A stretch of DNA of 64,000 bases from an uncultured bacterium. Lineage in GTDB: Bacteria; Chlamydiota; Chlamydiia; Chlamydiales; SM23-39. The notes under the pieces were generated by a model. It was not told the DNA's origin and made no database searches. It saw only the letters and a list, made by a program, of their open reading frames with translations. Position 1 is the stretch's first letter; each line of letters starts with the position of its first letter. The stretch spans positions 2,937-66,936 of the forward strand of contig CAYXMS010000003.1 of the NCBI GenBank assembly GCA_964466185.1. The letters run 5' to 3'. The translations under genes and the position numbers were made by a program. Below, piece after piece: positions 3,675 to 60,837 of this stretch.

Positions 3675-3715
3675 AAAACCTCTGGTTTTAGTTATGGCGA
3701 GTATGTCAATAAACT
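3675..3715 (+). repeat. Dispersed hairpin element copy (provisional family, see findings)
   Basis: aaaacctctggttttagttatggcgagtatgtcaataaact, reading KTSGFSYGEYVN. It shares the aaaacct...tttag head with 37267-37303 and the gtcaat tail with other copies. Confidence 0.45.
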
Positions 3716-3841
3716 AATCATTTTAAACAGAAGACTACAGCTCTTATATGGTTTTTCTAAACCTACTATTAATTTGCATATTGTGAGATCCAGAACTTTC
3801 GTATCTTAGTTCGAGATATTGCTTATGCATAAATCTTTTTT

Positions 3842-4777
3842 TTAAAAATTACAGAAACTGCCTTGATAAGTTTTTCTTTTAGTGAATTCCTGCAGTATAC
3901 ATTGTAAAAATTTTTCTTTATTATCTTTCATCCATAAGGGATGAACAATATCCAGAGGATGGCCATTTCTGGAAGAAACCCTATGTATAATAGTTTTTGG
4001 GGAAAGCCTTTGTACAAAATCGCAAACTAATGTTACTGATTCCGCAAAAGACGGGCTCTTCCACAGACCTTTTAGAAAAATTTTTTCTAGAGCTGTATTT
4101 TTTAAGGCAGCTAAAAGATGTATTTTAACACCTTCTATCTCAAGCTCTGCTAATTTGTCAGCTGTAGCTAACATTTCTTGTTTTGATTCCCCAGGTAAAT
4201 TTAAAATGATATGGGCACAGTGGTGTAAATTATATTTTTTAGTCAGTTCTATAGCTTTTAAAAAATCTGTTAAGCATTCCTGCCGGTTAATGAATTTTAA
4301 AGTTTTATCATGGATAGTCTGCAGACCATATTCAATGCAGACATAATCTACTTTTTGCTTGTAGGAAGCTATGAGTTTTATTTTCTCTTCATCTATACAG
4401 TCAGAGCGGGTAGCAATGGAAATGCCGACAATATCAGGATGAGCTGAAAGAGCTTCGTCATAGCGTTTTTTTAAAGTTTCTAAAGAGGCGTGCGTATTGG
4501 TAAAGGATTGGAAATAGACGATGAATTTTTTAGCTTTATATCTGCTTTTTCTGATTTTGATATTGTTTCTTACCTGTTCTTTGATTGGAGTCAAAAGTTT
4601 GTTGGTACGGGAAGAGGCGCCTTTAGATTCACAAAAAATACAGCCCGCCAAGCTTTTGCTGCCATCTCGATTGGGACAGCTAAAACCACCATCTATAGAA
4701 ACTTTATAGACCTTTGTTTTAAATAGCTTTTGCATATAATCATTATAGCTAAAATAAGGCAGGGATTGCTTTTTCAT
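3842..4777 (-). CDS. Radical SAM protein, TIGR01212 (YhcC-like) family
   Basis: 311 aa. The N-terminal segment VSIDGGFSCPNRDGSKSLAGCIFCES and the overall layout are typical of this family. Confidence 0.85.
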   Translation of the reverse strand: MKKQSLPYFSYNDYMQKLFKTKVYKVSIDGGFSCPNRDGSKSLAGCIFCESKGASSRTNKLLTPIKEQVRNNIKIRKSRYKAKKFIVYFQSFTNTHASLETLKKRYDEALSAHPDIVGISIATRSDCIDEEKIKLIASYKQKVDYVCIEYGLQTIHDKTLKFINRQECLTDFLKAIELTKKYNLHHCAHIILNLPGESKQEMLATADKLAELEIEGVKIHLLAALKNTALEKIFLKGLWKSPSFAESVTLVCDFVQRLSPKTIIHRVSSRNGHPLDIVHPLWMKDNKEKFLQCILQEFTKRKTYQGSFCNF

Positions 4778-4816
4778 TTTGTGTAAGTTATTATTTTATC
4801 AAAAGGTTTTAAATAT

Positions 4817-5755
4817 ATGCCTTCATTTGTCCGCAAACTGTTTTGTCTGCGTTATTTTACTTTAATTGGCTCTGTCGGCTTATTTGTAGCTCTAGTATAC
4901 CTTAAATATCCGCTTTTTCTAGATAAAATTCATGAAGAGTTCGGTTATTTTCATGCCCATGTAAATAAAAAAGAGCTTAATACTGCCAACTATAAATTTT
5001 CTTATGTAGAACGAGGAGACGGACAGGCTATTTTGTTTGTCCATGGTTTTCGCAGCGATAAGAATAATTGGCTTGGATATATACGTAAATTAGGAGGGGG
5101 ATATAAATATGTAGCTCTAGATTTGCCGTACCATGGAAGTACTGTTGTCAAACGAAAGGTCGAGTTTAACATTAAAAATATGACAGCTGCTTTAGATGAA
5201 TTTATAAAGGCTAAAAAATTAAATAACTTTTATATGGTAAGTACTTCTTTGGGAGCAGGCTTTGCTTTAGAATATGCCCGTCATAATCCGGATAAAGTAT
5301 TGAAAATTGTTTTAATCAATCCTTTTGCTTTAAAACCTTCTAGCAAGGAAAAATTGCGCGCTGTGGTAGAAAAAAATAAAAAAGTGTTTTCTCCTGATAC
5401 GTTGGAACAGCTGGATTATTTGTTTGTTTCTATGAAAGGCTTTCCTTTGCAGGTGCCTTCAAATATCAAGAATTATATTTTGGAAAAGATCAGAGCGACT
5501 AATGCACAGGGTAAAAAAATGTTAGAAGAAGTATCTTGCAGCGAAGGACTGGAAAAATATCTTCCCCGAATTAGAATACCAGTTTTAATTTTGCAAGGCA
5601 GTAAAGATCAGGTGATTAATTTCAAAGATAAACACGTTTATAAAAAATTGCTGCCTAATTTAAAATATGTAGAAATCAAAGGCGGCCATCATATTTTTTA
5701 TAAAAAAAGTTTAAGAAAAGCTGTTTTGGAGATTAAAAAGTTTTTAGCAGATTAA
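4817..5755 (+). CDS. Alpha/beta-fold hydrolase with N-terminal membrane anchor
   Basis: 312 aa. It has an HG oxyanion motif (FVHGFRSD), the nucleophile elbow VSTSLGAGFA, a C-terminal GGHH and an N-terminal hydrophobic segment. Confidence 0.8.
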   Translation: MPSFVRKLFCLRYFTLIGSVGLFVALVYLKYPLFLDKIHEEFGYFHAHVNKKELNTANYKFSYVERGDGQAILFVHGFRSDKNNWLGYIRKLGGGYKYVALDLPYHGSTVVKRKVEFNIKNMTAALDEFIKAKKLNNFYMVSTSLGAGFALEYARHNPDKVLKIVLINPFALKPSSKEKLRAVVEKNKKVFSPDTLEQLDYLFVSMKGFPLQVPSNIKNYILEKIRATNAQGKKMLEEVSCSEGLEKYLPRIRIPVLILQGSKDQVINFKDKHVYKKLLPNLKYVEIKGGHHIFYKKSLRKAVLEIKKFLAD

Positions 5756-5764
5756 AGTTTAAAA

Positions 5765-6040
5765 TTAAGGACGCTTTTTGACTTTGGCTTGTTCTTTTTT
5801 AGTGCTGGATATAATTTGCTTGAAAATTGCTTTTAAATAATCAGAAGGAAATTTTTCTAAAATTTCTTTTTCCCTTTTTCTGTCGGTAATGTGTTTTTTA
5901 TAAGCCAAGGCTTGTAAGGCTAAAAATAGCCGTTTGTTTAAAAGAGAAATTAGCTCTTTATTAACGCCATCTATTTTTTGGCGGATTTGATCAAGCTTTT
6001 CAGCCGTATCTTGAGCTTTGTTTTTGCTTTTAGTTTTCAT
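5765..6040 (-). CDS. Small AroQ-type (type II) chorismate mutase-like protein
   Basis: 91 aa. LDQIRQKIDGVNKELISLLNKRLFLALQALAYKK...TDRKREKEILEKF aligns by eye with the E. coli CM domain, including the Arg11, Arg28, Lys39 and Asp48/Glu52 equivalents. Confidence 0.6.
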   Translation of the reverse strand: MKTKSKNKAQDTAEKLDQIRQKIDGVNKELISLLNKRLFLALQALAYKKHITDRKREKEILEKFPSDYLKAIFKQIISSTKKEQAKVKKRP

Positions 6041-6078
6041 GTTGTTTTGTTCCTTTTCGGTTGTTTTTTTTCGACTAA

Positions 6079-7323
6079 TTAAGAGCTTTGAGTAGTTTTT
6101 TCTATTAAATAAAGCTGATCATTGCGGCGTACTTTTTTTCCTACTAATATAGCAGCCTTTTCGCCTTTTTGAGCAGACAGAACCGGTCCGTTAGTATGCA
6201 AAGATAGAACTTTCATTTTGAGTAAGCCTGTAGTCGGTCCTGTAATATAGACTTCCTGGCCGATTTTTAAAGAACCGGCTTCCAATAAAAACTCGGCCAC
6301 TTTTAAATTGGAAAAATATTTAACCGCTTTTCCCAGGTATGTTTTTTTTTGCGAAGCTTTAGAACCTGAAACATTAGACCACTGCTTTGTTTCTTGGCCT
6401 AAATAATAACCGCCTTCCCAAAAACCGCGGTTGTAGACTTTTTCTAAATCGGACTTGAGCTTTTTGATTTTTTCTAGACTATATTTATTTCTCAGCAGGC
6501 AGATTAAAGCTTCTTTATAGGTTTTAGTGACTTGCCAGACATAATCAGCAGAACGGGCCCTGCCTTCAATTTTTAAAATTGAAACTCCGCTTTTCACTAT
6601 TTTGTCCAACAGACCAATCGTGCATAGATCTTTAGGAGACATGACATATTTATTATCTATGACCAGTTCCTTTTGAGTATTTTCATCGATAATTTTATAT
6701 TTTCTGCGGCATGGCTGCAGACATTGGCCCCGATTGGCTGATTTGTTGTAAAGAGCCAAACTCATATAACATCTGCCGGAAATCGCTATGCATAAAGCGC
6801 CATGTATAAAAATTTCTATTTTTACTAAATTGCCGCTGGGTCCTTTGATTTTTTCTTTTTCAATACCCTGGATTATGTCGGTAATTTGCTGCAGGGTCAG
6901 TTCTCTGGCTAAAACAATAGTATCAGCATACCCGGCAAAAAACCTAACCGCTTCTAAATTACCAACATTGGCCTGTGTAGAGACATGGGCGCTGATTTTG
7001 ATTTTTTTTAGATACTCTAAAACTGCCATGTCGCTGGCAATAATAGCATCAACCCCGCAGCTCTTAGCAGCATCAGCTGATTTTTTGAATAAAGCTATAT
7101 CTCGATCATAAATTAAACTGTTTAAAGTCAGATAGCTTTTGATGTTATGCTTTTTGCAAAGCGCTATGCATTTAGGTAGGTTTTCCAGGTTAAAATTATG
7201 ACCTGCCAAAGTACGCATATTTAACTCGTCCAAGCCGAAATAAATGCTGTCTGCTCCGGCATCAATAGCAGCTTTTAAAGCAGCAAAAGATCCAGCCGGA
7301 GAAAGAAGCTCAGGAATTTTCAT
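6079..7323 (-). CDS. Peptidase U32 family protein (YrrO/TrhP-like size class)
   Basis: 414 aa. N-terminal ELLSPAGSFAALKAAIDAGADSIYFG and the Cys motif HGALCIAISGRCYMS...SANRGQCLQPCRRKY are both typical of U32. Confidence 0.9.
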   Translation of the reverse strand: MKIPELLSPAGSFAALKAAIDAGADSIYFGLDELNMRTLAGHNFNLENLPKCIALCKKHNIKSYLTLNSLIYDRDIALFKKSADAAKSCGVDAIIASDMAVLEYLKKIKISAHVSTQANVGNLEAVRFFAGYADTIVLARELTLQQITDIIQGIEKEKIKGPSGNLVKIEIFIHGALCIAISGRCYMSLALYNKSANRGQCLQPCRRKYKIIDENTQKELVIDNKYVMSPKDLCTIGLLDKIVKSGVSILKIEGRARSADYVWQVTKTYKEALICLLRNKYSLEKIKKLKSDLEKVYNRGFWEGGYYLGQETKQWSNVSGSKASQKKTYLGKAVKYFSNLKVAEFLLEAGSLKIGQEVYITGPTTGLLKMKVLSLHTNGPVLSAQKGEKAAILVGKKVRRNDQLYLIEKTTQSS

Positions 7324-7489
7324 AAAAACCTTTTTGGTTTTAGAAATTTTTAAATTAAAAGTAAAAAAATTATACTAAAATCAATGATTTTAACTAAGGT
7401 TTAAAATTAAATTAATAATTTTAATATAGAGAACATAGAAATATATGCTGCCAAATTCTACGTTTGCCAGATAGGATTATTCGAAAAAA

Positions 7490-8179
7490 TTATCTGATTT
7501 GACAGCTTAATATTTTATTTTCCAATTTTTTCTTTAAATCTAAAAATTCATTGTCGGAAAAAGTTTTAAAATCTTTTAACTCCGAGTTTAAAGGATTTTC
7601 ATTTATGTATTTTTGCAGGGAATATAAAGGCGCGTTTGGTATTAAATCCGCCATTTTTTCTACATCTTTTATAGTATGCAGACCTTTGACTAAAGTAGAG
7701 CGGAATTCTTTTTTTATTTTAGAATCTAAAATCAAAAAAATGCTTTTTAGAATTTTTTTAGTATCTACTTTAACTCCAGTTATTTTGGCATAATTTTTTA
7801 AAGGGGATTTTAAATCCATAGCAATATAGTCGATAAGGTTTTGCTGAATTATTTTTTTGAGCATTGCCGGATTAGTGCCGCAAGTGTCCAGTTTGATTAA
7901 AAAATCCAGTTTTCTGATTTTTTCTAAAAACTCAGGCAGGTCTTTTTGCCAAGTCGGCTCTCCTCCGGTTATAACAACTGCATCTAATTTGCCTTGGCGT
8001 TTTTTTAAAAAAGCTAAAATCTTTTCTTCGTCAATTAAAGGTCCGTAAGCCGATGGTATAACCAAGCTTTGATTGTGGCAAAACTGACACCTGAAAGGAC
8101 AGCCGCGAGTAAAAATCACGGCTGCCAATTTATCAGGATAGTCTATTAAGGAAAATTTTTGCCAGCCCCCGATTAGCAT
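7490..8179 (-). CDS. nrdG: Anaerobic ribonucleotide reductase activating protein (radical SAM)
   Basis: 229 aa with the CPFRCQFCHN cluster motif and GGEPT. It overlaps the nrdD stop by 7 nt. Confidence 0.9.
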   Translation of the reverse strand: MLIGGWQKFSLIDYPDKLAAVIFTRGCPFRCQFCHNQSLVIPSAYGPLIDEEKILAFLKKRQGKLDAVVITGGEPTWQKDLPEFLEKIRKLDFLIKLDTCGTNPAMLKKIIQQNLIDYIAMDLKSPLKNYAKITGVKVDTKKILKSIFLILDSKIKKEFRSTLVKGLHTIKDVEKMADLIPNAPLYSLQKYINENPLNSELKDFKTFSDNEFLDLKKKLENKILSCQIR

Positions 8180-10308
8180 ACCGCAGCCTTTTTATTTTCA
8201 AACTCCATTTGATAATTTTTTCTTATATTAAATTCAGCCTGTTTTCCAGCGTTCCATTGTTGTACGGGGCGTAGATAACCAGTGACTCTGGAATAAATCT
8301 CACAGTCTTTGGCACAGGTAGGGCAGATTGGATGCTCTCCTGATATATAACCATGTTCTGGACAAATGCTAAAAGTAGGCGTGATGGAAATATAAGGCAG
8401 GGAATAGCCGCTGAAAACTTTTTTGATTAGGTTTTTTACATTTTGTCCGCTATGGATTTTCTCTCCAATATAACTATGCAGAACAGTGCCGCCTGTATAT
8501 TTGGTTTGTAAAGCATCCTGGTGTTCTAAAGCTTCAAATAGATCATCAGTATAATTAACCGGCAGAAGCGAAGAGTTGGTATAAAAAGGTTGCCCTCCTT
8601 GTGAATAGCTTTCTTCATTTGCCGAAATAATATCCGGATGTTTTTTCTTGTCTAAAAGCGCTAGCCTAAAGGCAGTGCCTTCAGCTGGCGTAGCTTCTAA
8701 ATTGTAATTGTTGCTGGTTTCTTCTTGGAATTTGGTTAGCCTGTCTCGCATAAAGTCTAAAACTTCTAAAGAAAAAGCTTTTCCATTAGATGAAGCTATA
8801 TTTTCTTTTAAAAGATTTAAACAGGCTTCGTTCATGCCTAAGATGCCGATAGTAGAAAAATGGTTTTTCCAATAGCAGTTAAACCGCTGTTTAATATCCC
8901 TTAAATAAAACTTGGAGTAAGGATACAGCCCAGCTTCCGTCAGTCTTTCTATGACTTTTCTTTTAACTTCCAAACTATGTTTGGCCAGATCCATAAGCTC
9001 GGCTAATTGGTCAAAAAACTCTTTTTTGTTTTTGGCTAAATAACCAAGCCTTGGCAAATTAATAGTTACCACGCCAATAGAGCCGGTTAAAGGATTTGCT
9101 CCAAAAAGCCCCCCTCCCTTGTGCGCTAGCGATCGGGTGTCCAACCGCAGCCTGCAGCACATGGATCTGGCATCTTCAGGACTAAGTTCTGAATTAATAA
9201 AATTGGCAAAATAGGGGATCCCGTATTTGCCTGTTACGCCCCAGAGAAGATCGTGTTTAGGATTGTCCCAGTCAAAATCTTTGGTAATATTATAAGTAGG
9301 AATCGGAAAGGTGAAAACGCGGCCTTTGGCATCGCCTTCAATCAGGACCTCTAAAAAGGCGCGATTAAACAAATCTAGTTCTTTTTGAAATTCTTTATAG
9401 GTTTCTTTTTGGTTTTTGCCGCCGATGACTACAGGTACGTCGGCTAAAATAGAAGAAGGCGTTAAATCTAAGGTAATATTGGTAAAAGGAGTTTGAAAGC
9501 CAACCCTGGTCGGTACATTGATATTAAAAATAAATTCTTGCATGGCCTGTTTAATCTGCTGATAATTTAAATTGTCATAACGGATAAAAGGAGCCAAAAG
9601 AGTGTCAAAAGAGGAAAAAGCTTGGGCTCCTGCAGCTTCGCCTTGCAAAGTATAAAAAAAATTAACCGCTTGACCCAGCGCTGTTCTGAAATGTTTGGGA
9701 GGCTTGCTTTGCACTTTTCCAGCGACCCCTGTAAAACCGGAAACTAAAAGATCTTTTAAGTCCCAGCCAACACAATAAGAGGATAAAACTCCCAGATCAT
9801 GCAAATGTATGTCCCCTTCCTGATGAGCTTTTTTGATTTTGGAATTGTAGATCTTATTTAGCCAATAAATTTTATCAGTTTCCGATGAGATATAATTTTG
9901 CAAACCCTGTAAAGAATAGGACATGTTGGAGTTTTCTTTGACTTGCCAATCCAATTTGTCCAAATATTGGTCTATCAAGACTACTCCTGCTTGATTGGCT
10001 ATTTCTCTTAAATGAGCATGATGGTCGCGATATATAATGTAGGCTTTGGCAGTTTTTTTAAATGCAGAAGACAGTAAAACCTCTTCTACAATATTTTGTA
10101 TTTCTTCAACGGTTGGAATTTCTTCTGTTGCCGTTTGTTCCAATAATTGAATCACTTTTAATGTTAAAGTTCTGGCAGCCTTTTCGTTAATCTCTTCAGT
10201 TTCTTTGCCCGCATTGATAAGGGCTTTGGTGATTTTTTGGGGATTAAAAGCCACTGTTTGCCCCGTTCTTTTTTTGATTTTTTCAATTTTACAGTTAGAT
10301 TTTTTCAT
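8173..10308 (-). CDS. nrdD: Anaerobic ribonucleoside-triphosphate reductase (class III)
   Basis: 711 aa. It has an N-terminal ATP-cone (KIKKRTGQTVAFNPQKITKAL). The C-terminal Zn site CPEHG...CPICPTC is followed by the glycyl-radical motif SRVTGYLRPV. Confidence 0.95.
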   Translation of the reverse strand: MKKSNCKIEKIKKRTGQTVAFNPQKITKALINAGKETEEINEKAARTLTLKVIQLLEQTATEEIPTVEEIQNIVEEVLLSSAFKKTAKAYIIYRDHHAHLREIANQAGVVLIDQYLDKLDWQVKENSNMSYSLQGLQNYISSETDKIYWLNKIYNSKIKKAHQEGDIHLHDLGVLSSYCVGWDLKDLLVSGFTGVAGKVQSKPPKHFRTALGQAVNFFYTLQGEAAGAQAFSSFDTLLAPFIRYDNLNYQQIKQAMQEFIFNINVPTRVGFQTPFTNITLDLTPSSILADVPVVIGGKNQKETYKEFQKELDLFNRAFLEVLIEGDAKGRVFTFPIPTYNITKDFDWDNPKHDLLWGVTGKYGIPYFANFINSELSPEDARSMCCRLRLDTRSLAHKGGGLFGANPLTGSIGVVTINLPRLGYLAKNKKEFFDQLAELMDLAKHSLEVKRKVIERLTEAGLYPYSKFYLRDIKQRFNCYWKNHFSTIGILGMNEACLNLLKENIASSNGKAFSLEVLDFMRDRLTKFQEETSNNYNLEATPAEGTAFRLALLDKKKHPDIISANEESYSQGGQPFYTNSSLLPVNYTDDLFEALEHQDALQTKYTGGTVLHSYIGEKIHSGQNVKNLIKKVFSGYSLPYISITPTFSICPEHGYISGEHPICPTCAKDCEIYSRVTGYLRPVQQWNAGKQAEFNIRKNYQMEFENKKAAVC

Positions 10309-10363
10309 GGCTTTTGCTCCTCTTTTTAAAGATACTATTAATAGATTGCTCTAGTAACATTAG

Positions 10364-10379
10364 ATACTATATATGGTAT
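10364..10379. promoter_or_regulatory. NrdR-box-like palindrome, proximal
   Basis: atactatatatggtat compared with the remembered NrdR-box consensus acaCwAtATaTwGtgt. It lies 56 nt upstream of the nrdD start. Confidence 0.6.
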
Positions 10380-10396
10380 CCATGCTACTTTCTTTA

Positions 10397-30095: not shown

Positions 30096-30126
30096 GAATC
30101 CATCTTTTTTCGGTAGCGGTAATTGG
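30096..30126 (+). repeat. Possible degenerate copy of the dispersed hairpin element
   Basis: gaatccatcttttttcggtagcggtaattgg, reading ESIFFR. The resemblance is weak. Confidence 0.25.
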
Positions 30127-34938: not shown

Positions 34939-34985
34939 GTACAATTGTAATTGAATCTTTTTCCTCTAAAGGCGAAGGATTTTTG
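34939..34985 (-). repeat. Dispersed hairpin element copy
   Basis: 34966-34981 (ctaaaggcgaaggatt) is the exact reverse complement of 56040-56055. The minus strand reads ...AKNQKSFAFRGKRFNYN, and that frame stays open ~40 codons upstream. Confidence 0.6.
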
Positions 34986-35317
34986 GTTTTTAGCTCCGAG
35001 CAATTTCGGCAGCGTTCTAGGTTTTAGACCAGTATACCGAAGGCCGGATTTTTTGATTTTTTAAACATACTTGGTTATCGTATGTTATTGAACTTTTACT
35101 ATAGTGTTTTACTTTTGAAAGATTTTTTAAAGAATCCTATACATTTTTCAGAAAACAAAAATGGCTTAAAGCCAATATTCGCAAAAAAGCAAATTTTAAC
35201 TTTAAAATATTTCAACTTTTTAAGAAAAAAACATTTTGCGCTTTATATCCTGTCCCTAAAATAATAGGTTTTATGGAGCATCTGATAAAAAAATAATAAA
35301 TTTTAAGAGCAGACATT

Positions 35318-37110: not shown

Positions 37111-37145
37111 TCTTATAAATTTCCCAAAATTTGATTTAATTTTTT

Positions 37146-37190
37146 GATATGTACGAACTTTTTTGAGTTTAAAGGGGGAAAGGATGTTTT
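37146..37190 (-). repeat. Dispersed hairpin element copy (degenerate)
   Basis: The minus strand reads aaaaacatcctttccccctttaaactcaaaaaagttcgtacatatc. It lies head-to-head with the copy at 37267. Confidence 0.4.
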
Positions 37191-37266
37191 TGTTAAAAAA
37201 TTTAATTTCTGTTTTATATTGTATAACAGAGAGTTATTCTGATACGTCTTTTATCAAACGCGCCAT

Positions 37267-37303
37267 AAAACCTGCCCCCTTTAGGCGGTTCTTTGAACAT
37301 ATC
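37267..37303 (+). repeat. Dispersed hairpin element copy
   Basis: aaaacctgccccctttaggcggttctttgaacatatc, reading KPAPFRRFFEHI. Confidence 0.5.
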
Positions 37304-37529
37304 TATTCTTTTTTTTGTATTTTATTACTATTACTTAATAATTTAAATTAATATTTAAACTGCTAAACACTAGTTGTTTATGTTGTTAAAAATATCCCCC
37401 TGTAAATAAGCTGCTTATAACAAGCAACTTATAAATAACAATTAAGTTTATGTATAAAAATTGATTTGCTGATTTTAATTAAAAAAAATGTTATTATATA
37501 TACTATAATAATTAATGTGACTATTTTTT

Positions 37530-38770: not shown

Positions 38771-38843
38771 GGGGGCTTAGCTTAGTTGGTAGAGCGTCTG
38801 ATTTGCATTCAGAAGGTCAAGAGTTCGAATCTCTTAGCCTCCA
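38771..38843 (+). tRNA. tRNA-Ala (anticodon UGC)
   Basis: It folds as a cloverleaf by hand. The acceptor gggggct/agcctcc includes the G3:U70 identity pair. The anticodon loop is tttgcat and the T-arm is gagttcgaatctc. CCA is not encoded. Confidence 0.95.
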
Positions 38844-38860
38844 AAATTAAAATTCTCAAT

Positions 38861-38937
38861 GCGGTTATAGCTCAGTTGGTTAGAGCGCGACACTGATAAT
38901 GTCGAGGTCCCAAGTTCAAGTCTTGGTAACCGCACCA
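38861..38937 (+). tRNA. tRNA-Ile (anticodon GAU)
   Basis: The acceptor is gcggtta/taaccgc, the anticodon stem-loop is cgaca-ctgataa-tgtcg and the T-arm is caagttcaagtcttg. A 3' CCA is encoded at 38935-38937. Confidence 0.95.
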
Positions 38938-42740: not shown

Positions 42741-42785
42741 TAGTCAATCACCCCTCCCTAAAGGGAGAGGCTTGAGCCGTGAGGA
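42741..42785 (-). repeat. Dispersed hairpin element copy
   Basis: The minus strand reads caagcctctccctttagggaggggtgattgacta (ASPFREG*), with the hairpin cctccct/aaa/gggagagg. Confidence 0.55.
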
Positions 42786-43098
42786 ACAAGGGAAACTGGT
42801 TGATTAGGGAGCACAAAGGAAACTTTATGCAGCAGTTGGTTAGAAGAGATTACATACACACCTTGGAATGTTTTAGCCGGTGGCTGTTCGCAAGTTCCAA
42901 GCTCTGTGGTTGGCGGTTAAATGTCGTGAGGGGTAAAGGCTGTGCTGCCAGCTTAAAAATGCTTTCCAACAATCTCGATGCGACTTTAACCGCAGAGGGA
43001 GGCGGGACAGAACTTTATGCTTTTGCATATCTTTATTGTTTCTGCCCTAATTTTTTAACAATTAACGGAGGGGCAGCATTTCTTCCAACATTGAAAGA
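42748..43098 (-). pseudogene. GC-rich non-coding relic, very tentatively the decayed 3' end of an IS200/IS605-type tnpB-like gene
   Basis: A single minus frame of 117 codons has 3 internal stops. It reads SFNVGRNAAPPLIVKKLG...FNRQPQSLE...TAQASPFREG* and runs straight into the hairpin element. Line 42901-42960 is 30/60 G+C. Confidence 0.25.
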
Positions 43099-43124
43099 AG
43101 TTGGTTTCCATGCTGTCGGTTTTT

Positions 43125-44117
43125 ATGAAGGAAGTTAAAAGGATTGCAGTAACCGGCGGGGGAGGGCAGATAGGCTATAGCTTGCTTTTTAGAATCGCTG
43201 CAGGAGATCTGCTGGGAAAAGATCAGCCAATCGAACTTTGCATGCATGATATTGAAGAAAATGTCAGCTCGCTTTTAAAGGGAGTTGCCATGGAATTAGA
43301 GGATAGCTGTTATCCGCTTTTGAAAAAGATTGTTATCAGTTCTAATTTAGAAACAGTTTTTGAAGGGGTAGATATTGCTATTTTAGTAGGAGCCAAGCCT
43401 AGGGGTCCTGGAATGCAGAGAAAAGATTTAATTCAGGACAACGCTGCTTTTTTTCGAATGCAGGGACATGCTTTAAATTGTGTTGGCAAACAAAATGCCT
43501 TAGTTTTTGTAGTCGGCAATCCTTGTAATACCAATTGCTTAATAGCTCTTCATCATGCGCCGAATTTGTGTAGGAATAATTTTCATGCTATGACTAGACT
43601 GGATCAAAACAGGGCGGTTTTTCAGCTGTCTGAAAAAGCTCAAGTTGACTTTGAAAAAGTTAAAAAAGTTGCGGTTTGGGGAAATCATTCTAATACTTTG
43701 GTAGTTGATTGTTTTAATGCTGAAATTGATGGAAAGCCTCTTTTACAAAAAATTACAGATACAAAATGGCTGGAAAACGAGTTTTTGCAAATTATTCAGC
43801 AAAGAGGAGCTGAGATTATTAAAATGCGGAAAAAATCGTCGGCAGCTTCTGCAACCCAGGCTATTTTGGATGGGATTAATTCTATTTTAAGTCTTACTGA
43901 AAAAAATAATTTTTATTCTTCCTCTGTTTTATCGGATCATAATCCATATGGCATTGAAGAGGATCTGATTTTTTCTTTTCCCATTAAAACCGACCGCAAT
44001 TTAAGCTGGAAAATTGTGACGAACTTAAAAATTAATAGTTTTTTAGAAGAAAAAATAAAAATTTCGGAAAAAGAACTGATATTAGAAAGGGATGCAGTTG
44101 CACATTTGTTAAAATAA
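43125..44117 (+). CDS. mdh: Malate dehydrogenase (LDH-like type 2, NAD-dependent)
   Basis: The ATG at 43125 gives MKEVKRIAVTGGGGQIGYSLLFRIAAG. Other motifs are VGNPCNTN and WGNHS. Confidence 0.93.
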   Translation: MKEVKRIAVTGGGGQIGYSLLFRIAAGDLLGKDQPIELCMHDIEENVSSLLKGVAMELEDSCYPLLKKIVISSNLETVFEGVDIAILVGAKPRGPGMQRKDLIQDNAAFFRMQGHALNCVGKQNALVFVVGNPCNTNCLIALHHAPNLCRNNFHAMTRLDQNRAVFQLSEKAQVDFEKVKKVAVWGNHSNTLVVDCFNAEIDGKPLLQKITDTKWLENEFLQIIQQRGAEIIKMRKKSSAASATQAILDGINSILSLTEKNNFYSSSVLSDHNPYGIEEDLIFSFPIKTDRNLSWKIVTNLKINSFLEEKIKISEKELILERDAVAHLLK

Positions 44118-51335: not shown

Positions 51336-53354
<2,019 letters not shown>

Positions 53355-53474
53355 GGATTTTGAGAAGCGGTGATATAAATGCCTAAAAAAATAAAGTCCG
53401 GTTTTTAAAAAATAGGATAAAAACAATATTAAAAAAAACGAACAAAATCAAAAACTGTTAAAAGAAATATCTAA

Positions 53475-54770: not shown

Positions 54771-55102
54771 TTAAAAAAATAATTAATAAAAAAATTATAA
54801 AATCTGTTTGGCAAATTATAAATCTTAGCAGAAAAAATTCTTATTTAAAAATCTAAAATTTGATCTTTAGGGTCAACTGCTGGTAGCTATGGAATTGACA
54901 TTCTTTTTATGGCTAAAGTCAGGGGTATTATGCTGTCGTTGATAATTTTTTAAAAACAAGTAAAAATTTAACAAATAACAATCAAACTTTGAAAAAAATT
55001 AAAAAAATAGGTTTAAAAAGGTTTTTAAACAAGACAAAAAACTTGGCAAAAATCAATGAAAAACTTATTCTTATAGTAGTTTTTAAAATATGGAATGGTG
55101 AA

Positions 55103-55555
55103 ATGAATAAATATAAACCGACTAAAACTTCACTCAAAACCAAAAGCCAGTCTTTTCAGGAAAAGATTTGGTTTCTGTTAGATGCTAGAGGAAAAATTTT
55201 AGGTAGGCTGGCTGCAGAAGTGGCTAAGATTTTAACTGGCAAACATAAGCCTTCTTATACTCCTAATATAGACACTGGCGATGGTGTAATTATCATTAAT
55301 GCTGACAAAATTGAAGTTACAGGAGCAAAGGAAGCGCGTAAGATATACCGTCATTATACTGGTTTTATGAGTGGTTTAAAAGAAGTCCCTTACCGTGAGC
55401 TAAAAGCTAAAAAGCCTGAAGAAATTTTACAAAGGGCTATTTCTGGCATGATGCCTAAAAGCAGGTTAGGGCGCCAGCAACTAAAAAAACTGAAAATTGT
55501 AGTTGGAGAAAAGCATAATATGGAGGCGCAAAAACCTCTTTCTGTAAACATTTAA
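55103..55555 (+). CDS. rplM: Ribosomal protein L13
   Basis: The ATG at 55103 gives a 150-aa protein. Motifs are WFLLDARGKILGRLA and YRHYTGFMSG. The upstream in-frame extension is unlikely to be real. Confidence 0.95.
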   Translation: MNKYKPTKTSLKTKSQSFQEKIWFLLDARGKILGRLAAEVAKILTGKHKPSYTPNIDTGDGVIIINADKIEVTGAKEARKIYRHYTGFMSGLKEVPYRELKAKKPEEILQRAISGMMPKSRLGRQQLKKLKIVVGEKHNMEAQKPLSVNI

Positions 55556-55590
55556 ATTTTAATTTTAATAGGCAAACTTGGATTTAATTC

Positions 55591-55983
55591 ATGAAAAAAA
55601 AAGAATTTATAGGCATTGGTAGAAGAAAAACAGCTGTAGCTTCTGTTAGAATGCGTTTGGGAACAGGGCAGATTAATATAAATGGCAGAAAATTAGACGA
55701 GTATTTTTTACTTGCTTTAGAACGAGATAATATTTTATCCCCCCTCAAGAAATTTGCTTCTTTAGATAAATATGATTTGATTTTGCGGATTAAAGGCGGC
55801 GGCATTGCAGCTCAAGCAGAAGCTGCTAGATTAGGAATTGCCAGAGCTATGGTTAAAGAAAATGATGAGTTAAGATCGGCATTAAAAGATTTGGGTTATT
55901 TAACCAGAGATCCGCGTAAGAAAGAGCGTAAAAAATATGGCCGTAAAAAGGCCCGTAAGAGATTCCAGTTCTCTAAGCGTTAA
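55591..55983 (+). CDS. rpsI: Ribosomal protein S9
   Basis: 130 aa with GRRKTAVA, GGGIAAQAEAARLGIARA and a C-terminal KKARKRFQFSKR. Confidence 0.96.
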   Translation: MKKKEFIGIGRRKTAVASVRMRLGTGQININGRKLDEYFLLALERDNILSPLKKFASLDKYDLILRIKGGGIAAQAEAARLGIARAMVKENDELRSALKDLGYLTRDPRKKERKKYGRKKARKRFQFSKR

Positions 55984-56038
55984 TTTATCAAAAAAAATAC
56001 CAGCAAAATCTGTTTCTTTTCGGAGAGCTGGGAATTAT

Positions 56039-56076
56039 GAATCCTTCGCCTTTAGGCGAGGGAGGTTCAATATAAG
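56039..56076 (+). repeat. Dispersed hairpin element copy
   Basis: gaatccttcgcctttaggcgagggaggttcaatataag, reading ESFAFRRGRFNI. It has a 16-nt exact match to 34966-34981 in reverse complement. Confidence 0.6.
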
Positions 56077-56104
56077 TTATCTTCCTCCTTGTTTATCAAG
56101 AAAG

Positions 56105-56134
56105 ACCCTTGGGATTTTTTCCAGGGGTTTTTTA
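56105..56134 (+). terminator. Rho-independent terminator of the rplM-rpsI operon
   Basis: acccttgg pairs with ccaggggt (8 bp including one G:U), followed by TTTTTT. Confidence 0.65.
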
Positions 56135-56285
56135 TGTTTTAACTACTTTTTAAAGCATGATTTTTTGCTTATTTAAGTAATTAAATATTTAAATAAATAT
56201 TTTTATAAAAAATGATTTAAGTTTTTTTTATTGATAATAAAAAAGAATATTAATATGTATTTAAATATAATCTTCAGAATGAAGG

Positions 56286-56786
56286 ATGCTTAATTATATG
56301 TTTATTGTATCTGACAAAAATTTTAACAAACCAATTTCTGCTTCTGCTTTAGAGGTTTGTAATATTCATTTGTTTGATGAGAATATAAGTCCGCATGAGG
56401 TAATTTTTGGCAACCGCATTTTAGAAATAGTTAGTTGCTATGCAGATAAAGTAGCTTTATCTCATAGCGGTATTCAATGTCATACAGCAGGCATTGATTT
56501 TGTCCGTTTTTTTGCTCAGGCGAAACGGGGGGATGTTTTAATTTGTAAAGCCTCGATTAATAGAAGCTGGCAGAATTCTATGGAAGTAGGAGTTAAAGTT
56601 ATTGCGGAAGATTTTCGTTCTTTAGAACACAAACATATTTTATCTGCTTATTTTACTTATGAAGCTTATGATATTGATAACAAACCTATGCCGGTGCCTT
56701 TTGCTATTTGGGAAACAAAAGACCAAAAACGGCGGTTTGCTGATGCTCAAAAGCGTCGTCATTTACGTTTAAAACGTTCTAGTTAA
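56286..56786 (+). CDS. Acyl-CoA thioesterase (hotdog fold, YciA/BFIT-like)
   Basis: 166 aa with GNRILEIV, HTAGIDFVRFFAQAKRGDVL and NSMEVGVKV. Confidence 0.8.
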   Translation: MLNYMFIVSDKNFNKPISASALEVCNIHLFDENISPHEVIFGNRILEIVSCYADKVALSHSGIQCHTAGIDFVRFFAQAKRGDVLICKASINRSWQNSMEVGVKVIAEDFRSLEHKHILSAYFTYEAYDIDNKPMPVPFAIWETKDQKRRFADAQKRRHLRLKRSS

Positions 56787-57916
56787 GTAGATTTTGTTTT
56801 TTTTAACTGTATTTTATTTAAAATGTGATCTTTGTATTTTTTAATCCATATTTTTAATTTTTCCCAGAAAAATATTAGGATCAAAGGCAGCCATATTAAA
56901 ATGAAAGCGGAGCCGCTGCCATTTTCTGTTAGAATAAAAAAAGCGTCCATTAAAGTATAAAATCCAATAAAACAGAACAAGGCAAAAGCAGTTACTATAA
57001 AAATATAGTTGCTTTGTCTGGAAAAACGAAACAGCCAAGGAGTTATTACAATTGGTATTAAAAGCGGAATTAAAGGCATAGCTAATTTATAGTTGAGATG
57101 GGCGCTTAAGGCTGATTTTTCTTTATAAGAGGAAAAATGCTTTTGTAAAAATTGCCAAATCAAGGTAGTTATGGACCTTTCTTCAAAGGGGACTAGAAAA
57201 GCCGAACTTTTATGATCAAAGTAGATATTTTTAAAAGTAAAGCGAAGATAAGAATCTGTTTTGGTTAAAAAACTTTTGTCATTTTGTATAAAGTGATCGA
57301 CAAAATGCCCAAGGGGGGGAGTTTGGTTTAAGTCTAAATTTTTAATGTGGTAAATTTCATTTTTTAAAAGCCAAAAAACATCGAATAACTGATTGCTGAT
57401 AGCGTCATATCGACTGTAGATTAATTTGCTGCCGTTTTTCAATATGACGGACTGGACATTAATATTTTTTTCTTTTCTTTGGCTATGCAGATGTTGTTTT
57501 TTAAATAAATGGACTGTTCTTAATGCTTTGGGGTATTGAAATTCTGTATTACAATAAGATAGTAAAGATAGAAAAATGCCAATGTAAATTAGAGGCCGAA
57601 TAATTTTTTGTCTGGAAAGGCCTGCCATTTGCAAGGCCAAAATTTCGTTGTTGCGATTCATGGAACCGATAACTTTGATAGTCGCCAAAAGAAAACCTAA
57701 AGAAAGAAAAAGATTTAAATATAGGCTGATTTGGTAATAGTAATAGATGAAAAATTGCCACAGTGAGGCTTTTCCAATAGTGAAAAATCGAGGCCCTCTA
57801 AGGGAAAAATCTAAAATAAAAAAGAAACAATATATGGCCAGAATGAATAGCAGCAGAAATTTAATGGATTCTTGGAAAATAAGTTTTTGATAGATTTTTT
57901 TTATTTTAAGATTCAT
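56783..57916 (-). CDS. lptG: LPS export permease LptG-like (YjgP/YjgQ family)
   Basis: 377 aa with a 3+3 TM layout and a central periplasmic domain. It is the second gene of an overlapping pair. Confidence 0.75.
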   Translation of the reverse strand: MNLKIKKIYQKLIFQESIKFLLLFILAIYCFFFILDFSLRGPRFFTIGKASLWQFFIYYYYQISLYLNLFLSLGFLLATIKVIGSMNRNNEILALQMAGLSRQKIIRPLIYIGIFLSLLSYCNTEFQYPKALRTVHLFKKQHLHSQRKEKNINVQSVILKNGSKLIYSRYDAISNQLFDVFWLLKNEIYHIKNLDLNQTPPLGHFVDHFIQNDKSFLTKTDSYLRFTFKNIYFDHKSSAFLVPFEERSITTLIWQFLQKHFSSYKEKSALSAHLNYKLAMPLIPLLIPIVITPWLFRFSRQSNYIFIVTAFALFCFIGFYTLMDAFFILTENGSGSAFILIWLPLILIFFWEKLKIWIKKYKDHILNKIQLKKTKST

Positions 57917-59001
57917 AGCCGGCCTTTGGATATTCGTCTAATGGAATAAAGAGAAATTAATAAAATTAACGGTTGCACTAGTACATAAATTAAAGCAGCA
58001 GATAAAGGATGTGATTTAAGTGCTTTAGCAGCGATAAAGCTGGCGAGAATAAAAAGTGCTAAAAAAGCGGCTGTCAGCAGTTTTTTTTTGGATTCTATCC
58101 GTCCAATTTCAATGCCATAGGAAATGCCAATCAAGGTAAAAGAAAAGACTGAAATGGAAATAGCCAGTCTTCTGATAATTTCTAGATAAAGCAGTTGTTT
58201 TTTAGTTTTTTCTTGCATTTTAGCACAGGCTAAAAGCATTTTAGTAGGCAAATGTAAAGAGTTGATAGAAAAACTGTCGGATTTCATGAATTTAGTTACT
58301 TTTTTAGCTTCTGTTTTCATTAGATCTTGATTTTCAATAATTAGCGTATCGAATTGGTTGGGATTTTCTAAATGATGTGAAATAATAGAGACTTTAGAGC
58401 CTACGAGCACATCATTATTTTCTAAATATAGATGTTTAGCTCTAATTAAAGAGAGTTTTCCATTATATCGATTAGGAGTGATAAAGATTAAATTTTTGGC
58501 CGAGTTTTTATCAGCTGTTGTTTCCAGGTCTATAAATGCTTTTTTTATTTTTAAAAGTTTTGGTTTTTCTAAAAGAAAAATGGGATTGAAAGAAATTTGG
58601 CTGTGGGCGATTTTTTTAGAAGCATTAATACATCGTGGTGAAACTTCCGAAGCCAGGTAAAAATTAAGTATGCTGATGAGTAAAGCGGTATATAAAATAG
58701 GAGCTGTAATTTTTTTAAAAGAAAAACCGCTGGCGCGTAGTACAGTTAGTTCATGTGTTTTAGAGAATTTGTGAAAAAGCAGCATCGCAGAGATTAGACA
58801 AGATATGGGAATAGCTATCGGCAGGATATGGGGAATTTGATAGAGGGTATAAAAAAAGACTTTGCCAATATCTGTAGTTAGCGCTGCGAATCTGGCTATT
58901 TCTTTTAATCTGGTAATTAAAAGTACGCAAACAAAGCCAAAAGTAGAAAGCAAAAAAACTTTTATATAAATGGCTGTTAAATAGCGCCAGATTAAAGGCA
59001 T
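57913..59001 (-). CDS. lptF: LPS export permease LptF-like (YjgP/YjgQ family)
   Basis: 362 aa with the same architecture. It is the first gene of the pair and overlaps the next gene by 4 nt. Confidence 0.75.
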   Translation of the reverse strand: MPLIWRYLTAIYIKVFLLSTFGFVCVLLITRLKEIARFAALTTDIGKVFFYTLYQIPHILPIAIPISCLISAMLLFHKFSKTHELTVLRASGFSFKKITAPILYTALLISILNFYLASEVSPRCINASKKIAHSQISFNPIFLLEKPKLLKIKKAFIDLETTADKNSAKNLIFITPNRYNGKLSLIRAKHLYLENNDVLVGSKVSIISHHLENPNQFDTLIIENQDLMKTEAKKVTKFMKSDSFSINSLHLPTKMLLACAKMQEKTKKQLLYLEIIRRLAISISVFSFTLIGISYGIEIGRIESKKKLLTAAFLALFILASFIAAKALKSHPLSAALIYVLVQPLILLISLYSIRRISKGRL

Positions 59002-59110
59002 GAAAAACCCACTAATTAAGGTAAAATTAATATTTTACATTACTCTTTTAGAGATTTAGTTTAGATTTTTTGAGATTATTTTTGTAGGCTATTTCGAAGT
59101 TTATGCTAAT

Positions 59111-60640
59111 ATGTTTTGTATTATGTTTGATAAAAAATACAATGAAATAGCTGCTTTTTTGCAAAGCAAACAGCCTTTTCGAGGGCCTTTGATTTTAGCT
59201 TATTCCGGAGGTTTTGATTCGAAGGCTCTTTTATATTTGTTGTTAGAATTAAAAAAACAGCAACAGCTTGATTTTGAGCTGGTTTTAGCCCATGTCGACC
59301 ATGGTTGGAGAGAGGAAAGCTCTCAAGAGGCTGAAATTTTAAAAGAAGAGGCAAAACAACTAAAGCTTAAGTTTTTTCTAAAAAAGCTTTCTAAATATTC
59401 AAAAACAGATTTGTCAAAAGCGGCTATTTTGCCAAAAAATCAGGAAGCTGTCTGCCGCAGGCTAAGATTGGAATTTTTTCAACAACTTTATTTTGAATTA
59501 AAAGCATCTTATCTTCTGTTTGCTCACCAAAAAGATGATTTGCAAGAAACGGTTTTAAAAAGATTTTTAGAAGGTGCGGATTTAACTTTTTTATCGGCTA
59601 TGCAAAAGGAAAGTTTTTTATTGGACATGTATATTTTACGGCCTCTTTTATCTTTTTCTAAAAAAGAGCTTTTAGAATTTTTAAAAGTTCAAAAATTAAG
59701 GGCCATTAATGACAGAACCAATTTTGATTTTAAATATCAACGTTCGCGTCTGCGCCATTTGCTTTTGCCTAAACTAAAAGAAATTGTAGGTAAAAGGGTA
59801 GTTGATAATTTAGTCTATGCTTCCCAGCGCTCTTATGAGCTTAAGGCTTATTTAGATAGAAGGGTGAAAAAAGTATTTAAAACAAGAAAAAAGTCTGTTT
59901 TCGGAGTGTTTTTAGAGTTTGAAACTTCCGGTTTTTGGGATTTGGATTTTTTTGAAAAACAGTATTTGATCAAAAAACTTTTTACGGATGCTGGTTTTAA
60001 TTTAACAAGATCTGTTTTATCTAGAATTTTAGATTTTTTAAATAAAACCAAGCCTTGTCATAGCAGGTTTTTCTTAGCTCTTAAAGACGGAGATTTAATT
60101 ATTGAGCAAAATATGATTTTTCTTTGGAACAGGTTAAATTTAAATTTTGAGCAAAAAATTTTGTTGCAAACGGGTCGCAGGAGAATGGGTTTTTGGGAAT
60201 TAGAAGTATCTGAAATTAAAAAAAATAGAAAGCTTAAACTATCTTCTTGGAAGGAATTTTTATTTTCCGGCTCATGTGAGTTAATTCTACCTAAAGATTT
60301 ATATTATTTGTCTTTCGACTTAAAACCAGATTTAAAAGCAAAAAATAAAAATTTGCTAACTCATAATTTAGATAATCCGGTAACCGGTGTGGATAATTCA
60401 GCTGCCAGTCAAACGGTTGTCTTTGATCCATCAATTAAGCTTTGGGGTAAACGTTTAAATCATCATTTGGCTGAAGAAAAAGTGCCATTTTTTTTACGAA
60501 AGAATTTTCCCCTTATTTTTAGAAAAGGAAAGCTTTTTTGCGATTTGCTGTCTGGAAAAAAGCGCTTTTCTGAAAAACCTTTTAAAAATATTTCTGAATT
60601 TTATCAAATAAAATTAATAATTAATCATAGCAATTTATAA
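59111..60640 (+). CDS. tilS: tRNA(Ile)-lysidine synthetase with long C-terminal region
   Basis: 509 aa with the PP-loop AYSGGFDSKAL, then HVDHGWREES and AHQKDDLQET. Confidence 0.85.
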   Translation: MFCIMFDKKYNEIAAFLQSKQPFRGPLILAYSGGFDSKALLYLLLELKKQQQLDFELVLAHVDHGWREESSQEAEILKEEAKQLKLKFFLKKLSKYSKTDLSKAAILPKNQEAVCRRLRLEFFQQLYFELKASYLLFAHQKDDLQETVLKRFLEGADLTFLSAMQKESFLLDMYILRPLLSFSKKELLEFLKVQKLRAINDRTNFDFKYQRSRLRHLLLPKLKEIVGKRVVDNLVYASQRSYELKAYLDRRVKKVFKTRKKSVFGVFLEFETSGFWDLDFFEKQYLIKKLFTDAGFNLTRSVLSRILDFLNKTKPCHSRFFLALKDGDLIIEQNMIFLWNRLNLNFEQKILLQTGRRRMGFWELEVSEIKKNRKLKLSSWKEFLFSGSCELILPKDLYYLSFDLKPDLKAKNKNLLTHNLDNPVTGVDNSAASQTVVFDPSIKLWGKRLNHHLAEEKVPFFLRKNFPLIFRKGKLFCDLLSGKKRFSEKPFKNISEFYQIKLIINHSNL

Positions 60641-60801
60641 TAATAATTAACTAAACCCTAGTAGTTTATTGTTTAAAACAGAAGTTGTAACAGGTCTGTT
60701 TTTTATATATGCAAAGTTGCTTTCTTAGAAAACAACAGTTTTTTAATTGGTTTTTTGCTATAAATATGATAGGTATGAAGAGAAAGTAAAAGAGGCCTAT
60801 T

Positions 60802-60837
60802 TTCTTTGCCTTTATATTTGAAAGGGCTTATATTAAT
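60802..60837 (+). repeat. Possible degenerate copy of the dispersed hairpin element
   Basis: ttctttgcctttatatttgaaagggcttatattaat contains the hairpin gccttt/aaagggc. The resemblance is weak. Confidence 0.3.

Follow-up and report, generated by a model that had tools for sequence, protein, structure and literature searches.

Short GC-rich hairpins that recur in the intergenic spacers of an uncultured chlamydial bacterium (Chlamydiales, lineage SM23-39) are very probably, for the most part, leftover ends of IS200/IS605-family transposons that carry guide RNAs of the TnpB and IscB types. The stretch analyzed, hereafter the window, comprises 64,000 nucleotides of contig CAYXMS010000003.1 (assembly GCA_964466185.1, positions 2,937 to 66,936). 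IS200/IS605 elements move as single strands by the 'peel and paste' activity of the TnpA transposase, and their TnpB or IscB nucleases are guided by omega-RNAs. Only gene-less derivatives of such elements occur in the window: the c4 mini-element, the c8 micro-element, the solo right ends (REs) c1, c2 and c9, the c6/c5 unit and a HEARO unit (Table 1). The hairpins are thereby a known kind of mobile-DNA debris and not a new regulatory element. The sequence identity to IS200/IS605 ends, the element boundaries, the lineage-specific insertion and the lack of nuclease genes in the window are documented below.

Copies c1 to c8 are the eight stretches that a first-pass annotation had grouped, together with two weaker candidates, into one hairpin family; searches covered both strands of the 64-kb window (128 kb), and all ten stretches are present. 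The origin proposed at that time, the 3' ends of IS200/IS605 tnpB genes, proved essentially right. It applies to c8, c4, c2 and c1, which are decayed or miniaturised ends from the omega-RNA scaffold region, and it fails for the set as a single family. The eight copies are a mixture of REs of at least two TnpB lineages, one left end (LE; c6) and the 5' end of one IscB-type omega-RNA (c7), while c5 and the weak candidates are not members. The RE lineages are told apart by their spacers, which are short in the chlamydial type (AGGT-TCAA) and long in the IS608 type (AGTATG-TCAA). A single motif recognized by eye had merged the right ends of TnpB elements with one left end and with the beginning of an IscB omega-RNA, probably because all of these share the need for hairpins that TnpA can recognize.

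Table 1. Positions and strands of the features in the window, with the stretches listed by the first-pass annotation.
Feature	Position	Strand	First-pass stretch	Description
c8	55989-56070	+	56039-56076(+)	82-nt micro-element in the 3' untranslated region (UTR) of rpsI; its final 55 nt (56016-56070) form an intact RE
c4 element	34951-35284	-	34939-34985(-)	334-nt tnpB-less mini-element with LE and RE
c4-element LE	35249-35290	-		Borderline LE, absent from the first-pass list; TTTTATCAGATGCTCCATAAAACCTATTATTTTAGGGACAGG (35290-35249)
c2	15194-15226	+	15194-15232(+)	RE relic with intact hairpin, 6 nt beyond the stop of a kinase gene on the opposite strand
c1	3675-3709	+	3675-3715(+)	Solo RE relic of IS608 type with long spacer (..GAGTATG-TCAA)
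c9	54895-54929	-		Putative decayed IS608-type RE relic in the divergent spacer between a miaB-like gene and rplM, absent from the first-pass list; AATACCCCTGACTTTAGCCATAAAAAGAATGTCAA
c5 + c6 unit	37146-37303	+	c5 37146-37190(-); c6 37267-37303(+)	158-nt inverted-repeat unit
HEARO RNA (c7)	42743-42990	+	c7 42741-42785(-)	Rfam RF02033, IscB omega-RNA, no iscB gene
Second HEARO-like fragment	63963-64000	-		31/38 identity to HEARO 42892-42929, cut by the window end
c3	18147-18180	+	18147-18188(+)	Possible decayed HEARO/IscB-type RE, ends GGTGATTGAC
Weak candidate			30096-30126	
Weak candidate			60802-60837	

Right ends of tnpB elements

The positions common to c2 and c8 yield the search pattern AATCCNNNNNCTTTAGGCNNGGGN{0,1}AGGNTCA, which has 22 specified bases. 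By chance, the pattern should occur less than once in the 596 Gb of species-representative genomes scanned; 51 matches were obtained, distributed over 50 loci. Most come from metagenome-assembled genomes (MAGs) of Chlamydiota and of the Planctomycetes-Verrucomicrobia-Chlamydiae (PVC) group, with Izimaplasma, cyanobacteria, Ktedonobacterales, Terriglobales and others as further hosts. For many matches, the distance to a contig end is exactly one k-mer, as is typical of repeats. A long open frame ends at the motif or a few tens of nt before it in 17 of the matches that have upstream sequence (typically about 380 aa, with the stop about 18 nt before the motif), and the remaining matches have short upstream open reading frames (ORFs) only. 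The two upstream ORFs that were tested carry HTH_OrfB_IS605, OrfB_IS605 and Cas12f1-like_TNB domains and are TnpB. Sequence similarity among the matched loci ceases directly after TCA(A), and copies within one genome diverge beyond TCAA. Two positions that were left free in the pattern turned out to be nearly invariant: the base 5' of AATCC is a G in 15/15 sequence variants and the base 3' of TCA is an A in 14/15. Therefore, the motif reads GAAT-hairpin-spacer-TCAA. In the RE of IS608, the guide sequence GR is GAAT, located 5' of the subterminal palindrome, and the cleavage site CR is TCAA (PMC5934647).

Annotated genes point to the same assignment. Plasmids of P. sordellii and F. philomiragia carry the IS608-type RE GAATCCCCTAGCTTTAGCTATGGGGAGTATGTCAA, or close variants of it, directly 3' of genes annotated as TnpB, with a tnpA also present in the F. 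philomiragia case; in C. difficile, the same RE occurs 3' of a gene annotated merely as 'transposase'. In the full-length relatives, the RE follows the tnpB stop codon by about 18 nt or overlaps it. Stem-preserving changes, which the first-pass annotation had named as something to look for, are present across 19 external REs, with three pairs altered on both sides; 90% of the stem cells are paired, compared to 38-61% in slid controls, so the external RE stem is maintained by compensatory changes. The peptide signature that had been read from one frame of the stronger copies is real as well. It is explained by an Izimaplasma MAG (locus L005), in which the full-length TnpB ORF reads through the hairpin and is translated as ...QESPAFRHGEVQ. 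A hairpin 5' of tnpB in this locus (517-543) is about 81% identical to the RE hairpin (1673-1703). LE and RE hairpins are thus alike in L005, as they are in IS608, and different in sequence in the chlamydial elements.

Within the window, REs were scored with an nhmmer profile of 330 nt built from 23 external right ends. The strongest match is c8, aligned from the tnpB-stop position to TCAA (56016-56070, E = 9.6e-13). Its target-adjacent motif (TAM) TTTAT (55984-55988) immediately follows the rpsI stop codon, and its right end, composed of GAAT, the hairpin, AGGT and TCAA, is identical to the commonest chlamydial variant. Guide and cleavage site are intact in c8, and the stems of c1, c4 and c9 are eroded. 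A recognizable LE hairpin is absent from c8 (no match to the LE model described below). The conserved rpsI terminator (56100-56133) is located 3' of c8 and is the only terminator detected by a scan near c8, c8 itself not being called.

The c4 element, read on the minus strand, starts behind a TAM TTTAT (35289-35285) with its putative LE (35284-35249) and continues to an RE part (35053-34951) that ends in TCAA and keeps the last ~90 nt of the tnpB/omega-RNA region. The external profile matches 35053-34966(-) with E = 1.4e-3 and extends into the 3' coding end of tnpB; by blastn, c4 is 80% identical over 65 nt to an external locus (L033, E = 2e-10). The guide of c4 is mutated to AAAT and both hairpins of the element are eroded. 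In c2, guide and cleavage tetranucleotides are likewise mutated (CAAT and TCAG). The REs of Ktedonobacterales TnpB elements match c2 with 29/31 identity (blastn E = 1.6e-7), and plasmid REs match it at 25-26/35 positions (null maximum 24). The c2 terminus is preceded, at a distance of 79 nt, by a TTTAT (window 15143-15226; the c8 span is 82 nt), which may mark a second micro-element or be due to chance.

The IS608 type is represented by c1, which is identical to the H. pylori IS608-type RE at 28/35 positions in an ungapped alignment, the maximum in 200 block-shuffles being 24; over its last 22 nt the identity rises to 20/22. Its hairpin is decayed, with stem mismatches that are mostly C>T, and its guide reads AAAA. 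For c9, the identities to two plasmid REs are 24/35 and 25/35 (null maximum 24) and the RE hidden Markov model (HMM) gives E = 0.24. No complete TnpB omega-RNA gene was found in the window, as the profile matches cover 55 nt (c8) to about 90 nt (c4).

One further RE-like stretch, TAGACCGCGGGCTTTAGCTATGGGGAGCTTTGCAA, lies within the coding sequence of uvrA (window 19477-19511(+)) and reaches E = 1.8e-3 with the external RE HMM. It holds a 17-mer identical to the H. pylori IS608-type RE, and it lies antisense, in frame, inside an intact segment of UvrA. Although statistically odd, it is probably a coincidence with a conserved protein motif.

The direct comparisons between copies gave a mixed picture. 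The exact 16-mer shared by 56040-56055 and the reverse complement of 34966-34981, which links c8 to c4, was reproduced and alone stands out in a self-BLAST of the copies, the remainder being AT-rich noise. Leave-one-out HMMs of the eight copies recovered c8 (E = 0.0002), c7 (0.002), c2 (0.078) and c4 (0.12), each top-ranked, while c3 (rank 5, E = 0.86) and c6 (rank 7, E = 2.6) were marginal and c1 and c5 were not retrieved, so the postulated family of at least eight copies was recovered in part. A short stem had been ascribed to every copy. It is present in c7, c8 and c2 (-18.3, -16.5 and -14.0 kcal/mol) and weak in c6 (-6.9 kcal/mol), and c1, c3, c4, c5 and both weak candidates fold no better than shuffles. 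All copies are intergenic as described, and for five of the eight a stop codon is found at a distance of about 100 nt or less. Five copies are located on one strand and four on the other, a split that is uninformative on replication bias. A 19-mer common to the upstream regions of c1 and c3 was rejected as not significant, since 6 of 656 real window segments score equally high.

Left ends, the inverted unit and the HEARO RNA

All 12 LEs examined in external tnpB elements share one layout, namely TTTAT|C, 11-13 nt, AAAAC, a hairpin and ATGAA, with variable sequence before TTTAT. An LE HMM built from seven of these external elements places c6 as the top match of the window (37249-37285, E = 1.6e-3). 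For this reason, c6 is regarded as a left end including its target motif and not as a right end. The c6 stub (37250-37290) comprises the TAM TTTAT (37250-37254), a C, 11 nt, AAAAC and the hairpin. Its identity to an external LE (locus L012) is 29/42 and 20/23, compared to null maxima of 27 and 18. A candidate LE at 35290-35249, located on the same strand as the c4 RE and about 300 nt upstream of it, ranks second among the window matches both when an external LE and when c6 is the query. The arrangement TTTAT|LE...RE-TCAA would therefore bound a 334-nt gene-less mini-element of the kind known as palindrome-associated transposable elements (PATEs). IS608 combines the LE guide AAAG with the target TTAC, and the elements described here combine AAAA with a target ending in TTAT; the fourth positions co-vary, which would reflect base pairing between guide and target if the published IS608 rule applies.

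The partner of c6 is c5 (37146-37190), a degenerate inverted sequence that pairs with c6 across 76 nt and not with itself. Together, 37146-37303 folds with -40.1 kcal/mol (z = -3.0). None of the models tried matches c5. The unit was also considered as a miniature inverted-repeat transposable element (MITE) with terminal inverted repeats and rejected as such: a metagenome scan returned 14 chance-like matches, none with a partner arm, neither the window nor the fetched loci contain another copy, and a target-site duplication is lacking. In the related genome GCA_964618335.1 (locus L080, 6048-6476), a 142-aa minus-strand ORF lies between the PHP and Exo_endo_phos genes. The corresponding part of the window (37111-37529) is without that ORF and has the c5/c6 inverted-repeat unit in its place.

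A complete match to the HEARO RNA family (RF02033; model positions 1-211/211) scores 105 bits against a gathering score of 83 (E = 1.4e-20). In a search of the whole window at both the gathering threshold and E<=10, Rfam yields this HEARO and two tRNAs, and the other copies match no family. The c7 hairpin corresponds, in reverse complement, to the first ~43 nt of the HEARO RNA. Read on the strand opposite to HEARO, it consists of a pyrimidine-rich arm, a TTTA loop, a purine-rich arm, about 4 nt and TGAC. Viewed from the other strand, the beginning of an IscB omega-RNA coincides with the RE of the transposon, which probably explains why c7 resembles the TnpB right ends; both kinds of element would have kept an RE that TnpA can recognize. 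Meers et al. described highly similar ends for the TnpB- and IscB-encoding elements of one genome, and found that gene-less PATEs often encode omega-RNAs.

The HEARO RNA is an orphan copy. No IscB ORF (HNH + RuvC) is found within about 500 bp downstream, where the next gene, encoding malate dehydrogenase (mdh), starts at 43125. The repeat unit implied by assembly breaks (see below) spans 42742-43066, i.e., about 324 nt, and appears to extend ~75 nt past the Rfam model. The unit has the orientation of its upstream gene, tgt, and neither a sigma-70-like promoter upstream nor a terminator was found at the locus in the scans. On the 3' side of HEARO (42991-43124), a T-run hairpin is located at about 43008-43066 and an imperfect palindrome at about 43075-43118, the latter ending at the mdh start codon. 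These two hairpins could be a 3' extension or terminator of the omega-RNA and/or a minus-strand LE. As a candidate LE of the HEARO unit, the hairpins at 43008-43058 and 43075-43118 gained no support from the DNA fold, which is not significant (z = -1.4).

Two other stretches may be related to HEARO. The fragment at the very end of the window may be a second, diverged or decayed copy, an uncertain assignment: Rfam finds nothing in 63700-64000 and the sequence beside the fragment does not continue the HEARO fold. As previously noted, GGTGATTGAC at 18171-18180, within c3, equals the reverse complement of 42743-42752, and c3 is the best non-self match to the c7 24-mer (18/24, a score reached in 2/200 shuffles). 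Rfam HEARO gives c3 8.8 bits on the unexpected strand, and a stable hairpin is absent.

Insertion, copy number and alternative explanations

Comparison with relatives identifies several units as lineage-specific insertions. In GCA_964618335.1 (locus L003; Tgt 82% identical), the tgt-mdh spacer measures 186 nt and is without HEARO. In another relative (locus L074; S9 79% identical), AAATT leads from the rpsI stop codon to the conserved TCTTCCTCCTTG and the terminator. Compared to this arrangement, the rpsI 3' UTR of the window has about 97 extra nt that start with TTTAT|C at the stop codon and end with ...GGTTCAA plus 9 nt. Furthermore, nusB and murB overlap in GCA_964618335.1 (locus L080) and are separated in the window by 439 nt containing c4; the whole nusB-murB spacer is therefore lineage-specific. 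By these comparisons, at least three units of the window (HEARO, c8 and the nusB-murB spacer) are insertions absent from close relatives.

Contigs of the same strain indicate copy number. These stem from the Logan assembly (k = 31) of SRR7048224, which contains the exact window proteins; they end at 15205, 35077, 42771 and 56068 and restart at 35164 and 43037. As a unitig runs 29 nt into a repeat before ending, the breaks imply exact repeats from 15176 (c2), 42742 (HEARO, to near 43066) and 56039 (the G of GAATCC in c8). By the same logic, the contig end at 56068 indicates that the genome contains the c8 31-mer from 56039 onwards at some other place as well. The gap at 35078-35163 corresponds to an implied repeat at 35048-35193, an AT-rich stretch of 146 nt in the interior of the c4 element that has no match in the window or the fetched loci. 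The breakpoints thus point to a multi-copy state of c2, c8, the HEARO unit and the c4 interior in this genome. Conversely, c1, c5/c6 and c9 would be single-copy given their position inside unbroken contigs.

On the proposed scheme, the elements would have arrived by TnpA-mediated insertion of a single strand 3' of TTTAT. Their tnpB or iscB genes may have been lost by internal deletion, or the elements may have spread as PATE-like miniatures, and older single-copy relics would erode by C>T and G>A changes under the AT bias of the genome. The copies in the window are most likely without host function. Nonetheless, the intact RE of c8 and the HEARO unit could be used in trans if the genome encodes TnpA, TnpB or IscB elsewhere.

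Several observations weigh against an origin from transposon ends or limit its reach. Pfam and NCBIfam models identified no transposase, TnpB or IscB among the window ORFs tested, and tblastn with four TnpB proteins detects no coding remnant of tnpB in the window; activity and source elements are therefore unseen within it. The external RE HMM score of c2 (E = 1.8e-8) is partly circular, as the search pattern was derived from c2 and c8. Support for c9 as an RE relic is modest and borderline (p about 0.01), the LE at 35249-35290 is equally borderline (p about 0.01), and so is the unproven assignment of c3 to a HEARO/IscB-type RE (p about 0.01). The c5/c6 unit is inverted, unlike the direct LE...RE arrangement of the family, and has no relatives elsewhere. 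Finally, the contig breaks could also stem from strain polymorphism or coverage gaps; the multi-copy reading is favoured because they coincide base-exactly with element boundaries.

Chance, i.e., GC-rich blips with a TTTA loop in AT-rich spacers that were selected by eye, is hardly credible as a general account. The weak candidates at 30096-30126 and 60802-60837, which fail every test, and c5 agree with it, as they match no model and fold no better than shuffles, and so does the comparable RE-like match within the uvrA coding sequence. External models nonetheless recognize c8, c4, c6 and c7 with E = 1e-12 to 1e-3, the score of c1 is never attained by shuffles, and the shared pattern retrieves TnpB right ends genome-wide. 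Chance is refuted for c1, c2, c4, c6, c7 and c8 and remains valid for the weak candidates and for c5 if taken as a separate copy. A host-selected RNA module that merely resembles transposon ends, such as a 3' stabilizing hairpin, an attenuator or a non-canonical terminator, is highly improbable, if somewhat less so than chance. Such a module would fit the position of most copies shortly 3' of stop codons and the stable hairpins of c2, c7 and c8, of which c8 must be transcribed because it is placed in the rpsI 3' UTR upstream of the real terminator. The absence of the copies from the corresponding sites of close relatives, whose flanking proteins are 62-83% identical, argues against a terminator or stability module, an idea also raised in the first-pass annotation, and so does the lack of a consistent orientation towards flanking genes (c1, c2 and c4 are antisense, c8 is sense). 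In addition, half of the copies no longer fold, a U-tract is absent, the sole terminator-like site near c8 is the conserved downstream one, and identity to tnpB-element ends in unrelated phyla accounts for the motif without a host function.

The most serious competitor, tentative and unlikely on balance, is an active miniature non-autonomous family (PATE/MITE-like) that depends on a TnpA encoded elsewhere and whose orphan omega-RNAs serve TnpB or IscB in trans. Elements of this kind are known (Meers et al.), the right end of c8 is a perfect GAAT-hairpin-TCAA, LE and RE of the c4 element stand in the correct direct orientation, the HEARO unit exceeds the Rfam gathering score, and the contig breaks indicate that c2, c8, the HEARO unit and the c4 interior recur in exact form. 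Activity is harder to reconcile with the eroded state and single-copy occurrence of c1, c9, c5/c6 and the c4 RE and LE hairpins, the mutated guide (CAAT) and cleavage site (TCAG) of c2, the missing LE hairpin of c8 and a 64-kb stretch in which no transposase is seen. A more far-reaching version, which we consider improbable, holds that the gene-less units form a live multi-copy population of guide-RNA-only elements, dependent on one or a few genes for TnpA, TnpB or IscB that act in trans, and that some copies could have been exapted. In such a population, c8, lying within the rplM-rpsI mRNA, might act as an exapted 3'-UTR structure or as a trans-acting guide. Debris of guide-RNA-carrying transposons remains the preferred explanation for most of the hairpins.

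The window has a GC content of 34% and the nearest named homologues of its proteins belong to 'Chlamydiia' and 'Parachlamydiales' MAGs. Its genes include a 1941-aa duplicated UvrA, a 912-aa FtsH, Pkn-type kinases and LptF/G. UvrA (18820-24645(-)) consists of two fused UvrA units with four ABC ATPase repeats, as in Chlamydia, and scores under the cutoff of the chlamydial long-UvrA model. The genes for tRNA-Ala(TGC) and tRNA-Ile(GAT) are found at window 38771-38937(+), in the order Ala-Ile with 18 nt between them and without rRNA genes nearby; the contig of the relative stops near this region. An Rfam match to 'Plastid-ycf2' corresponds to the antisense strand of tRNA-Ile.

Significance and comparison with known systems

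With this assignment, an unexplained dispersed hairpin becomes a set of annotated mobile-element ends, and the ends are defined for a tnpB family that is widespread in environmental Chlamydiota (TAM TTTAT, left guide AAAA, right guide GAAT and cleavage site TCAA). These ends and their relics in this genome are new; IS200/IS605 ends, PATEs and orphan HEARO RNAs are kinds already known. In genome annotation, it is advisable to mask these relics as IS200/IS605 ends or orphan omega-RNAs instead of listing them as novel regulatory RNAs, and their presence or absence between close strains can serve as an insertion marker. A new biological question would arise only if the orphan guide RNAs prove active.

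The closest known system is IS608 (ISHp608) of H. pylori. It shares the RE layout of GAAT, a subterminal hairpin and TCAA at the boundary, the 28/35 identity with c1 (including GAGTATGTCAA), and an LE guide 5' of the hairpin with a flanking target motif. It differs in its target and guide (TTAC and AAAG, compared to TTTAT and AAAA here) and in its RE spacer (6 nt, compared to the chlamydial 4 nt, AGGT). Moreover, the full-length relatives of the window ends have tnpB only and no tnpA, and the window fragments are gene-less. The 3' stem-loop of the TnpB omega-RNA (reRNA) is likewise a hairpin at or after the tnpB 3' end that is followed by flanking DNA in the guide position, and in some lineages (L005) it is translated as ..ESPxFRxGE..; the window copies, however, are tnpB-less, and what remains of the scaffold is its last 55-100 nt at most. 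The HEARO copy (42743-42990) corresponds to the full RF02033 model, and its codirectionality with tgt fits the orientation bias reported for IscB elements. It departs from typical HEARO loci in being followed by malate dehydrogenase instead of an IscB/HNH ORF and in belonging to a unit that appears ~75 nt longer than the model.

With PATEs, the c4 element (334 nt) shares the direct arrangement of LE and RE and the lack of genes. On the other hand, its hairpins are eroded and its LE is borderline, c8 is without an LE hairpin and c5/c6 are inverted. A PATE-like analogue of c4 is carried by the mobilizable H. pylori plasmid pUM157 (locus L055, 2258-2534), in which an IS608 LE (AAAG + hairpin) and RE (GAAT + hairpin + AGTATGTCAA) are about 280 nt from each other and enclose no transposase gene, i.e., a gene-less IS608 mini-element. 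Repetitive extragenic palindromic (REP) sequences and their REP-associated tyrosine transposases (RAYTs) offer a last comparison, since REPs are also short intergenic palindromes related to IS200/IS605 ends. Here, no RAYT gene or other transposase-like domain is seen among the window ORFs examined, and the copies differ from REPs in being few, heterogeneous and directly matched to the ends of tnpB elements.

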